Assembly: GCA_964508365.1 (NCBI GenBank)
Contig: CAZDTP010000006.1
Span: 32,001 to 96,000 of the forward strand
DNA from: an uncultured archaeon
GTDB taxonomy: Archaea; Asgardarchaeota; Lokiarchaeia; Sigyniarchaeales; SOKP01
DNA: 64,000 nucleotides
Direction: 5' to 3'
Made by a program: the position numbers and the translations under genes. Below are positions 33,568 to 60,412 of the stretch, one piece after another; within the stretch, counting starts at the first letter, position 1; every line of letters begins with the position of its first letter. Below the pieces are notes generated by a model. It was given only the letters and a program-made list of their open reading frames with translations, did not search any database and was not told where the DNA came from.

Positions 33568-34371
33568 TTATTTCGTCATATTTTTCAGTGGTTTTGCTGA
33601 TGTATATAAATAGCTAAAATAAAAGTTGCTTGCGGGTCCAAATGCTATATGATCGGTAGCTACCCCGAAATAGCTTAATGCCTTGAAAAAGCCTTGCGTC
33701 AGTATAATAAAAGCGTCTTCCCCTTCGTCCATTACTACGCTTGCTCCAAACACTTGATTACGAGAACGAATTTCAGAGATTTCACGATATTTTTCGATTA
33801 CTTCTCTAAATTCTTTGTCTTTCAATGCGTCTTCTTCAATAAGCATTTTTATATCAGTAACTCCTCTAGCTCTTGCTTTTTTAACATCATCATAAAATAC
33901 ATCTAAAAACTCATAATAGGGAGCAACGAAGTATAGAGAATTTTTAGCGCGATTGATGAGATCAATACTGCGACTGATACATACATCCCGTCCTCGGTGA
34001 ACATATAAAGCAATTTTTATAGGAGTGTCATGAGATTCGTAAATAGGTTTGAGCATGTGGATGATTTTGTTTGAGTGTTCATCAAAATTATCGTTAAGTT
34101 GTTTCTTTGCGATAATTAGCACTTCATCAGGACTTTTTGCAAAATAAGTTGACGGACGAGTGTTTTCTTCTCTTAGAATGAACATTTTTTCCTTTTCTAA
34201 TTGAGTTAAAATATTGTAAATTCTAGAATATGGAACACCTGAGGCATCAGAAAGCTCCCTTGCATCCATAGGTCCTTTTGAGATTAGAGTTAAATATATT
34301 GAAATCTCATAATCTGTTAATCCAATCGCATGCAAAGAATTTTTAACATTATCGGGAGTTTCATTTGACAT
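33568..34371 (-). CDS. TrmB-family transcription regulator
   Basis: GLTDYEISIY, LSDASGVPYSRIYNIL helix-turn-helix, followed by a PLD-like effector domain. Confidence 0.88.
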   Translation of the reverse strand: MSNETPDNVKNSLHAIGLTDYEISIYLTLISKGPMDARELSDASGVPYSRIYNILTQLEKEKMFILREENTRPSTYFAKSPDEVLIIAKKQLNDNFDEHSNKIIHMLKPIYESHDTPIKIALYVHRGRDVCISRSIDLINRAKNSLYFVAPYYEFLDVFYDDVKKARARGVTDIKMLIEEDALKDKEFREVIEKYREISEIRSRNQVFGASVVMDEGEDAFIILTQGFFKALSYFGVATDHIAFGPASNFYFSYLYTSAKPLKNMTK

Positions 34372-34510
34372 TATACTGCACAGCTATTCAAATTTGTGTA
34401 ATAAAGATGTTTTAAATACTTATAAGAGTTTTGTTAATTATTAGTTGAATAAATATTACATACTATATAAGATATTATTGGTATTATTTTTTTTTTGAAC
34501 CCTTGCGGGG

Positions 34511-34554
34511 CAAGTCATCTTGCGACTAATATTTTCTCGCAAAACTCATCCTTT
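34511..34554 (-). promoter_or_regulatory. candidate SECIS element (eukaryote-like)
   Basis: The minus strand reads GGAUGAG-UUUUGCGA-GAAAAUAUUAG-UCGCAAGA-UGACUUG: AUGA...GA core, 8-bp helix, apical AAAA. It lies 15-20 nt 3' of the TAA at 34569. Confidence 0.7.
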
Positions 34555-34568
34555 TTTTAAAATAATGT

Positions 34569-34748
34569 TTAAAATACATTTGTAAAGATACTGCATGTAC
34601 TAGGTCATCCTCCTCCTGCTTCCTCAAGAGACCCAAAATATATTACTATCAAAGAGATAATTACCGTCAATGTAGCTATTAGTGCTATTAGAATAATATA
34701 GAGAACGATTTTATTGATTCTATCATTTTCAAATAATTTTAATCGCAT
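34569..34748 (-). CDS. candidate small membrane selenoprotein (59 aa, UGA at codon 48)
   Basis: MRLKLFENDRINKIVLYIILIALIATLTVIISLIVIYFGSLEEAGGG-[TGA 34605-34607]-PSTCSIFTNVF-TAA. TATA-like TATATAAAAAA lies about 25 nt upstream and a SECIS-like hairpin lies downstream. Confidence 0.65.
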
Positions 34749-34890
34749 AAAAAAAGCCTATAATGATTTTTTATATATGTTAATTTTAAAATATTAAAAG
34801 CTTTTTCATAAAAAAATCCTTTTGGATTCAGAAAATTGACCGTTTGTTACTAGTGTATAAAATAAGTGTTTTTAATTACGCTTCAATTAA

Positions 34891-35767: not shown

Positions 35768-36256
35768 TTAAAATACTTCATCAATATATCTTTTTAATTG
35801 CTTCACATCTTCAAAATAAAATATGCTAACATTTTCTTTAAAGAATGGTTTTAGTAGCCCCCCTCTCTTTAAAACTTCAGTGATTTCTACATCTTTTAGA
35901 ACAAACACTTTTGTTTTTTCATAGTATTCTTTAAAGGAGAGGATTATCCCCATCTCAATCATATGTCCGCCCTTATCATGTTCGATGATCATAATGATCT
36001 CATCCGAGAATTTTGCGATTAAATCAAATTTTAGAATGAGATTTTCAAGATGAGTGCGTCTAAATTCTTTTTCAAAGAATCCAAGATTATTTTCATTCAC
36101 ATTTATTATCTTTTGCACTTCTTGAAGATTAGTGAATGTATCATCACTGTATGAACCACAAATGAAAATTTTATTCTTTAAAAGGTCGAAAACCGAAAAA
36201 ACGCTAATGAATTCATCTAAAAATTCGTCCCATGCACTATGATGTGAGACCTCCAT
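35768..36256 (-). CDS. hypothetical protein, possible nucleoside-deoxyribosyltransferase-like fold
   Basis: IFICGSY...SDEIIMII...GGHMIEMG pattern; weak resemblance only. Confidence 0.45.
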   Translation of the reverse strand: MEVSHHSAWDEFLDEFISVFSVFDLLKNKIFICGSYSDDTFTNLQEVQKIINVNENNLGFFEKEFRRTHLENLILKFDLIAKFSDEIIMIIEHDKGGHMIEMGIILSFKEYYEKTKVFVLKDVEITEVLKRGGLLKPFFKENVSIFYFEDVKQLKRYIDEVF

Positions 36257-51515: not shown

Positions 51516-51619
51516 TGGGAGCGACCGGATTTGAACCGGTGACCAACAAGTCTGGAGCCTGCCGCGTTCAGCACTATGCACCGAAAGGGCAAAGTTATAC
51601 CGGGCTTCGCCACGCCCCC
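51516..51619 (-). tRNA. tRNA-Trp(CCA) with D-loop intron (about 21/22)
   Basis: Acceptor GGGGGCG/CGCTCCC, anticodon arm GCAGG-CTCCAGA-CTTGT, T-arm ACCGG-TTCAAAT-CCGGT. A 28-nt insertion (51568-51595) lies in the D-arm. Confidence 0.9.
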
Positions 51620-59114: not shown

Positions 59115-59314
59115 ATTCGTAACTTTGCTTTTTCTTTGTATAAGAAGAAAACGAGGAAATATAAACTTAAGGTCGAACTAATATTGAGTATTATTCGTTA
59201 TTTTATTAAATTTAAAGGTGTTTTCAACTATTTCTTTTTAAAAAATTAATTAAGTAGGGTTATATCTTATTCTAAGTAGAATGAGATAAGATAATGGTTC
59301 GGTAAAAGATTGAC

Positions 59315-59329
59315 GCCGTTGTGCAACGG
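59315..59329. repeat. palindromic 15-bp repeat, copy 1
   Basis: GCCGTTGTGCAACGG, identical to 60815-60829. Confidence 0.8.
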
Positions 59330-59333
59330 GCTT

Positions 59334-59372
59334 CTCGATAAGCACCCACATGTGTGTTTTAGCCTATTTCAT
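59334..59372 (-). promoter_or_regulatory. SECIS element of selD
   Basis: The minus strand reads AUGAA-AUAGGC-U-AAAA-CAC(ACAU)GUG-GGU-GCUUAU-CGAG: AUGA/GA core, helix, AAAA and an apical mini-helix. It starts 9 nt after the selD stop. Confidence 0.75.
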
Positions 59373-59380
59373 TGACGTCA

Positions 59381-60412
59381 TTATACTTTACTTATTTCAA
59401 TCTGTTCAACTTTTTTCGACATCCTAACAAGTTCATTTTCTTTGTTATCAATTGTACCAACAGTCCAATTAGAAATGCCATTACTAGAGAGAGCGTTAGA
59501 AAAATCCTCTACTTTGCTCGGATCGATAGCTAATAGCATACCGCCAGCCGTTTCAGAGCACAAACAATCGGTAAAAGCGTATCCTAATTCCTCAGAAAGG
59601 TTTTTCGAAAACTTAATTGAAGGAACTGTTTCAATAATAGCAGATAATCCAGAATTTTGTAACATTTCTTTCAAATGACCAGACAATCCGAAGCCAGTAA
59701 CATCAGTCATAGCATGAATAAAAGAGAAATCGTCATATGTGTAAATCGTTTTTACTACGCCTTGATTAGATGTTGTCATAAGGTTTATGGCTAATTTAAT
59801 CGAATCACTGAGCTCATTCGATGAATATTCCTCCAGCATATCTGGAAAATCTTTTTGTAACCTATATGCTGCCATAATTGCTTGTAATCCAATAGGTTTT
59901 GTTAAGATTAATTTATCGCCTTTTTTTACACCGTGTTTCCGGATTAAATTGTTTTTATCGACAAAACCAGATGCTTCTCCACCAATAAGAGGCCACTCGC
60001 TATATATCGTATGACCTCCAACCACTTTGGAGTTTATTTTTTGTTCCATAAACCTGTTAATTCCTCTAAGAATTCCTTCTGCAATATTCATTGGAGTGTT
60101 TTTGTTGATAGCTAAAAACACGAGCATTCCTGAAACTTCTGGAACATTCATCGCAAATATATCATTTGTTACGTTACAAGCAGAGATTTCGCCCATAATT
60201 TCGGGTTCATCTACAATAGGAGTAAAAATATCAATACTTTTCACTTGAACCAGGTCGGAATTTGGAACGGGCACAATAGCAGCATCATCAATAAATCCTT
60301 TTAAACCAGTTTTCTCCAGTAATTCTTCTAATTGATTTGCACCAAGTTTACATGATCAACCATAGATTTTAACTTGCTTTGTCAACCGATATTCCTTTTT
60401 TTGTTCAGTCAT
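59381..60412 (-). CDS. selD: selenide, water dikinase (selenophosphate synthetase) containing selenocysteine
   Basis: ATG 60412 follows a GAGGTG SD. The N-terminus reads MTEQKKEYRLTKQVKIYG-[TGA 60356-60358]-SCKLG...DDAAIV, continuing into DIFTPIVD, NDIFAM, GGHT, LILTKPIG, TDVTGFGL.GH and ETAGGML. Confidence 0.93.

Follow-up and report, generated by a model that had tools for sequence, protein, structure and literature searches.

The window, that is, the whole 64,000-nucleotide stretch of Lokiarchaeial DNA analysed here, very probably contains on its minus strand an unannotated selenoprotein gene, whose product is predicted from the sequence to be a 59-residue membrane protein with an inferred extracytoplasmic redox role; the insertion of selenocysteine (Sec) is itself inferred. 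The gene belongs to a new selenoprotein family without detectable relatives, and uses the known Lokiarchaeial recoding system. An earlier note on this DNA had proposed that a small selenoprotein with one TM helix and a eukaryote-like SECIS of its own is encoded here, and that it falls outside the archaeal families known to its author; this proposal is supported, and the main texts of the published surveys list no such family.

According to the mechanism proposed here, a type I lokiSECIS on the mRNA would recruit the archaeal/eukaryote-like Sec elongation machinery, and the UGA at 34607-34605 would be read as selenocysteine rather than as the end of a 47-residue product, giving a 59-residue single-pass membrane micro-protein. 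The basic N-terminus of this protein would be cytoplasmic and its short acidic, Gly-rich C-terminal segment would lie outside the membrane, presenting GGG-Sec by a Cys (here U-x3-C) and followed by a short hydrophobic tail. The resulting membrane-tethered selenol/thiol redox centre would cycle via a selenenylsulfide, with the selenol acting alone in the few members that have no nearby Cys, and at the outer membrane face the protein may work as an antioxidant, as a small oxidoreductase, or as an arm that relays electrons for a partner.

The gene and its homologues

The features of the gene are collected in Table 1. ORF calling with table 11 gives only a 47-aa stub, and the frame is extended to 59 aa on read-through (window:34572-34748:-). 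This frame, with its ATG at 34748 and in-frame TGA at 34605-34607, had been pointed out in the earlier note as absent from the ORF list, and these features are indeed found at the positions given there. The part encoded by the first 47 codons reaches a mean Kyte-Doolittle hydropathy of 2.99 over its best 20-residue window, and P-S-T-C and a short hydrophobic tail follow the UGA codon. The TATA-like box claimed upstream of the start is also present, as an A/T box at about 34787-34766 that is kept at the same distance in the 10 closest homologues; a sigma-70 promoter and terminator scan was discarded as irrelevant to archaea.

Table 1. Positions of the gene features in the window
Feature	Positions	Strand	Basis
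Start codon ATG	34748-34746	-	sequence reading
Codons 1-47: basic N-terminus, one predicted TM helix of ~25 residues, acidic Gly-rich linker with GGG end	34608..34748	-	
In-frame TGA, proposed Sec codon (residue 48)	34607-34605	-	
11 post-Sec codons including vicinal Cys (U-x3-C) and hydrophobic tail	34572..34604	-	
Vicinal Cys codon	34595-34593	-	sequence reading
Terminal stop TAA	34571-34569	-	sequence reading
TATA-like A/T-rich box, putative archaeal promoter, ~20-40 nt 5' of ATG	34766..34787	-	
Type I lokiSECIS, whole element	34507..34557	-	model R1 match
lokiSECIS lower helix	34553-34551 with 34514-34512	-	
lokiSECIS AUGA	34549-34546	-	
lokiSECIS 9-position stem	34545-34537 with 34525-34517	-	
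lokiSECIS 11-nt A-rich loop with AG end, GAAAAUAUUAG	34536-34526	-	
lokiSECIS GA	34516-34515	-	
Small 3' hairpin directly 3' of the SECIS, CCC/GGG stem, GCAA-type loop	34499..34511	-	
TrmB-family regulator, downstream same-strand neighbour (context only)	33568..34371	-	Pfam TrmB, E 7.7e-17

The hairpin proposed as the SECIS begins 19 nt 3' of the TAA stop and spans 34549-34515 from AUGA to GA. It had been described as lying about 55 nt after the TGA; the downstream position is right and the distance needs adjustment, the AUGA starting 58 nt past the T of the TGA. The statement that no other minus-strand ORF is near enough to use it was borne out among minus-strand ORFs of at least 30 aa, none of which has its end near the hairpin; the nearest upstream (35768-36256) is more than 1.2 kb off, beyond the plus-strand radical SAM gene. 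No plus-strand ORF overlaps the hairpin. A search of sequencing runs located the stretch only in salt-marsh and other metagenome DNA contigs, with no RNA run listed.

Searches with the read-through peptide identified homologues in the genus that are as little as 31% identical and contain one TGA each. A profile built from 17 homologues has matches in 39 of the 42 genomes of the genus, including all 12 high-quality ones, and a match at E<=3e-6 holding exactly one TGA was found in 35 of the 42. At the level of the phylum, the profile search found matches in six genera of one Lokiarchaeial family (90 of its 134 sampled genomes), with no credible match in the 265 other Asgard genomes (399 searched in all); the few matches outside are Cys-rich or other TM proteins in which the match ends before the Sec column.

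All the 57 homologues that were read closely carry TGA at the aligned position and a lokiSECIS 3' of it, at a distance of 43-121 nt, or 51-60 nt for those of the genus. No column of the 37-sequence protein alignment (A5) other than that of Sec is invariant. Homologues ending with TAA or TAG at this codon would, according to the earlier note, have refuted the proposal, and none was seen among the homologues. The terminal stops of 30 genes from the genus comprise 17 TAA and 13 TGA codons, and TAA outnumbers TGA about fivefold as a stop in the genome, so a codon serving merely as a stop would not have been kept as TGA.

In 46 of 50 homologues, Sec has a Cys no more than four residues away, the spacings being U-x-C (30), U-x3-C (12), U-C (2), U-x2-C (1) and C-x-U (1); two further members have C-x-x-U, and four of the 50 have no vicinal Cys. 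Thus, the U-x3-C arrangement noticed in this gene is present here as described, but it is the form of one clade only and U-x-C is the commonest. Both TGT and TGC are in use as the vicinal Cys codon, and the codons between it and the UGA vary. The post-Sec tail is poorly conserved across genera: in some members it is reduced to one or two residues, in one genus to a single residue, and one genus has GGG-U-G or GGG-U-C immediately ahead of the stop. Tails of 20-34 residues in the sister genus share a hydrophobic C-terminal motif. The pN/pS ratio after the UGA (0.64-0.74) equals that before it, but the off-frame controls were noisy, and codon-position counts past the UGA did not discriminate either.

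Two variations in the 3' region of individual homologues were observed. At the loci L122, L113, L108 and L120 (genomes G018, G020, G010 and G007, respectively), the terminal stop is the UGA within the AUGA of the SECIS, and the coding sequence and the SECIS core overlap by 4 nt. In the homologue L127 (G149:C55), Sec is followed by an acidic tail of 61 residues, and the SECIS, 121 nt past the UGA, falls inside the open frame; this may be a genuinely extended form, or the frame may be open by chance.

In public protein collections the family is represented by 47-aa 'hypothetical protein' stubs from Promethearchaeota MAGs, with a few further entries reading the TGA as W. An exhaustive profile search of 1.84 billion representative proteins gave 49 matches; the eight of these that were retrieved end just before the TGA or have W there, and the remainder behave in the same way as judged by the match coordinates. 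None of the eight retrieved among these 49 matches has Cys at the Sec column, and no Cys homologue aligned to Sec was found in the 399 Asgard genomes or in 5.8 billion clustered proteins. The usual supporting criterion for a selenoprotein, a homologue with Cys at the Sec column, is thus unmet. Searches of Pfam and NCBIfam returned only noise driven by the TM helix. The annotations in these genomes need correction, from 47 aa to about 59-80 aa.

Five selenoprotein families have been described in Loki (Mariotti 2016, PMC4989117) and seven, none of them membrane-bound, in more than 400 Asgard genomes, from which eukaryote-specific selenoprotein families were absent (Huang 2024, PMC11227280); a 2026 review adds no further archaeal families. 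The present family does not appear in the main texts of the published archaeal selenoprotein surveys. Both surveys (PMC4989117, PMC11227280) find selenoproteins through their similarity to known ones or to homologues with Cys, and this requirement explains why the family was missed. An orphan family without a Cys form is invisible to homology-based surveys, which implies that the archaeal selenoproteome is undercounted.

The SECIS element

The type I lokiSECIS is defined by an AUGA directly 5' of a 9-bp stem, a GA (or AA) directly 3' of the stem and an 11-nt loop in which the first five bases are mostly A and the last is G, usually preceded by A; it was found behind the Loki VhuU, HdrA-VhuD and PrxL genes and is missed by standard tools (Mariotti 2016, PMC4989117). 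Every published feature of this type is present in the window hairpin. Its stem pairs at 9 of 9 positions when G-U is counted, which corrects the 8-bp helix described earlier, and its 11-nt loop, GAAAAUAUUAG, has A at four of the first five bases and an AG end. Stem and loop geometry is identical in all the 50 homologues scanned, and the AUGA and GA are invariant in 17 homologues. The hairpin had also been likened to the one behind selD in the window: the AUGA...GA core is indeed common to the two, but the selD element is of type II with an apical mini-helix and the present one is of type I.

No match to a SECIS family was obtained with Rfam at gathering or permissive thresholds, a null result that is expected because lokiSECIS elements escape standard tools. 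A pattern scan of the genome located the motif 8-19 nt behind HdrA, VhuD, PrxL and VhuU genes with an in-frame TGA. For a covariance model (R1), 43 SECIS elements located 3' of VhuD and PrxL genes of the genus served as the training set, from which the micro-selenoprotein family was left out. In the window, R1 matches 34557-34507 with 44.0 bits (E 2.1e-7), the runner-up reaching 12.6 bits; scoring by a model of Loki SECIS elements, suggested in the earlier note as a check, thus places the hairpin far above background. In the 4.07-Mb genome R1 gives eight matches at E<=1, among which the window hairpin ranks third; the two above it are training members, and it outscores the elements of three further VhuD/HdrA genes absent from the training set. 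Five of the other seven genome matches lie behind HdrA, VhuD or PrxL genes. The training set does include VhuD elements of nearly identical sequence, and the score therefore reflects sequence kinship in part and is not purely structural.

Further evidence for the structure comes from comparison of homologues. The fold of the single sequence is unremarkable (z-scores of -1.4 and -2.3 for stretches of 86 and 66 nt, respectively). Among 17 ungapped homologues, 90% of the cells are paired and 7 of 12 pairs are double-changed; 0 of 500 shuffles match the observed score, and shifted registers give only 33-49% pairing. RNAalifold, applied to 30 homologues, recovers the stem independently, with compensatory change in 5 of 11 pairs, and also finds the small 3' hairpin with its GCAA-type loop conserved; comparable small hairpins lie 3' of the VhuD and PrxL SECIS elements in the genus. 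The hairpin, the conservation of which had been named as a further check, is thus kept with compensatory changes. With an ORF of 180 nt and an element of 51 nt, the gene is a natural, compact test case for the eukaryote-like SECIS in archaea.

Predicted function, origin and alternative readings

The N-terminal segments of 50 members contain 216 K/R against 89 D/E residues, and the linkers of 8-16 residues between helix and Sec contain 5 K/R against 67 D/E. By the positive-inside rule this charge asymmetry points to an N-in/C-out topology, in which Sec is predicted to lie on the outer face, near the membrane surface. Selenenylsulfide redox centres are recognised by a Sec that is flanked by Gly and has a Cys close by, and it is on this account that the protein is read as a membrane-tethered redox arm; its function is probably that of a tethered selenol/thiol redox centre, an inference that, as a redox-pair model, cannot cover all the members since four of the 50 have no nearby Cys. 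Sec is the sole invariant residue and no Cys form is found; under the tentative wider proposition set out below, selenium itself would therefore be indispensable to the chemistry, the protein constituting, for example, a surface redox arm or a site of metal/selenium handling. The possibility of a lipoprotein signal peptide with Sec at +1 was ruled out by the polar linker of 8-16 residues between the helix and Sec.

Animal thioredoxin reductase ends in a C-terminal Gly-Cys-Sec-Gly redox arm. The present family has a similarly flexible, Gly-flanked Sec at the far C-terminus with an adjacent or nearby Cys, its closest approach being the members that end in GGG-U-C, and this analogy suggests a selenenylsulfide shuttle; the putative arm is, however, carried by a membrane anchor and not by a flavoenzyme, and no partner reductase has been identified. 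Like the VhuU, HdrA-VhuD and PrxL genes, the gene combines an in-frame UGA with a type I element a few nt 3' of the stop, but it encodes an unrelated 59-aa membrane protein with no Cys homologues and no Pfam or NCBIfam match. VhuU, the Sec subunit of about 50 aa of the [NiFeSe] hydrogenase, is likewise a tiny selenoprotein of archaea in which a Cys lies near the single Sec. It is soluble, carries a hydrogenase C-terminal metal-site motif and is encoded behind the large-subunit gene, whereas the window protein has a TM helix, no metal-site motif and no hydrogenase neighbours: it is flanked by genes for a TrmB regulator and a radical SAM protein, and the genuine VhuU of the genome is on contig C8. 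The FeoB-associated Cys-rich membrane protein (PF12669) is also tiny, with a single TM helix and a tail rich in Gly and Cys, but only 2 of 17 members match it, at E>=0.18.

Three proteins from another Asgard family (L161-L163, genus g52) also have a single TM helix and a basic N-terminus, and a tail of repeated Cys-x3-Cys replaces the Gly-Sec segment. They differ from the present family in having neither TGA nor SECIS, and the match ends before the Sec column; they may represent a sulfur analogue or, as with PF12669, the resemblance may rest on nothing more than the TM helix.

The identity of the SECIS core to the VhuD-1 SECIS averages 0.79 (maximum 0.97), against 0.80 within the family and 0.50-0.61 to the other SECIS groups. 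Since the core is as near to the VhuD elements of the genus as to those of its own family, the element was probably copied from an hdrA-vhuD locus, as far as sequence identity can tell. The VhuD-like core fits the idea of Huang et al. (PMC11227280) that new selenoprotein genes take their SECIS from existing ones, and the case would illustrate the birth of a new selenoprotein through the reuse of an existing SECIS. The wider proposition, that this orphan family arose within one Lokiarchaeial family when the gene of a small membrane protein captured a copy of the VhuD SECIS, and is the first archaeal membrane-anchored selenoprotein with extracytoplasmic selenium, can be put forward only tentatively, as a possibility that falls a little short of an even chance.

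Three other readings of the locus were considered. It is very unlikely that the UGA is an ordinary stop of a 47-residue membrane peptide and the hairpin a copied or relict SECIS, or an RNA structure for stability or termination. In favour of this, the 47-residue product is the one annotated by gene callers and in public databases, the genome does have an orphan SECIS with no usable ORF (C89:6359-6409, 42.4 bits), and the evidence for read-through is indirect only, with dN/dS failing to discriminate. An ordinary stop would nevertheless drift to TAA, yet TGA is retained in all 57 homologues read closely, which come from several genera and vary in their second stops; the Cys just past the UGA is retained in 46 of 50 members with synonymous codon changes; and a relic would not hold its structure, through compensatory changes, and its position across a whole taxonomic family. 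A selenium-sensing leader, in which passage or stalling at the UGA according to the supply of Sec-tRNA would tune the TrmB gene 135 nt downstream and the peptide would be of minor importance, appears highly improbable. Its attraction is that, of 30 loci in the genus, 29 have a TrmB-family regulator gene following in the same orientation. Other genera, however, retain the TGA and the SECIS among unrelated genes (PGK, PNPOx, hydrolase, MFS, ARMT1-like), the neighbour analysis found no conserved gene partner across genera, and conservation at the protein level extends to the TM helix, the Gly run, the vicinal Cys and the asymmetry of charge; an A/T-rich TATA-like sequence between the SECIS and the TrmB start also speaks against a leader. 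The radical SAM gene adjacent to the window gene had raised the possibility of a RiPP precursor, which was ruled out because synteny with the radical SAM gene holds in just 10 of the 30 loci.

The layout of one TM helix, a Gly-rich stretch and Sec at or near the C-terminus is shared with the eukaryotic ER selenoproteins SelK and SelS, and true homology, perhaps with the archaeal protein as a forerunner, has been weighed. The GGUG-type ends of SelS and SelK resemble the GGG-U-G and GGG-U-C ends found right before the stop in one genus. In the eukaryotic proteins a long disordered cytosolic segment is present, whereas the linker here comprises only 8-16 residues and the predicted orientation has Sec outside and not in the cytosol. 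No SelK or SelS Pfam match was obtained for 17 members even at E<=1, the protein occurs in a single Lokiarchaeial family, and no eukaryote-specific family was seen in Asgard archaea by Huang et al. (PMC11227280). Homology is thus scarcely tenable. The resemblance, which the earlier note had allowed might be convergent, is taken to be so in view of the missing sequence match, the shorter linker, the opposite predicted topology and the confinement to one family. The reading preferred here remains that of a recoded UGA in a membrane-tethered selenoprotein.

Sec machinery and other SECIS-like elements of the genome

The genome encodes SepSecS (476.8 bits), PSTK-like (153.9) and EFSec-like (237) proteins, and its SelD carries an in-frame TGA. 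No tRNA-Sec was found in the assembly with Rfam RF01852 or ARAGORN, the best candidate being a tRNA-Leu. ARAGORN identifies 29 tRNAs in all in an assembly scored as 100% complete, and the tRNA genes of the assembly may be intron-rich or unassembled. The sole Rfam match of the window at gathering level is a weak partial tRNA at 51524-51579 (-), with 30.6 bits over model positions 10-63, which may be an intron-containing or fragmentary tRNA.

The selD gene of the window (59290-60412, minus strand) has one in-frame TGA. The AUGA...GA hairpin in its 3' UTR is of type II, with a bulge rich in A and a mini-helix at the apex, and R1 gives no match to it. Elsewhere in the genome, the region L035 (G000:C89:6250-6600) contains the SECIS element at C89:6359-6409 (-), similar to the PrxL-2 elements of sister genomes; a plausible upstream ORF is absent and the element is probably a relic of a lost PrxL paralogue, from which it follows that orphan SECIS elements do occur. 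The region L034 (G000:C4:47450-47800) has a SECIS-model match at C4:47537-47588 (-) with 33.8 bits and a 12-nt loop, 40 nt downstream of a zinc-ribbon-like micro-ORF of 39 codons. The last sense codon of this ORF precedes a TGA and then a TAA, which could represent a C-terminal Sec, or chance. A 164-aa ORF (L033:281-775 (+), equivalent to G000:C22:21280-21774) contains three in-frame TGA codons, two of them adjacent (H-A-D-U-U-A-D), has a hairpin of the lokiSECIS pattern 8 nt past its stop (C22:21783-21817) and may be another unlisted selenoprotein.
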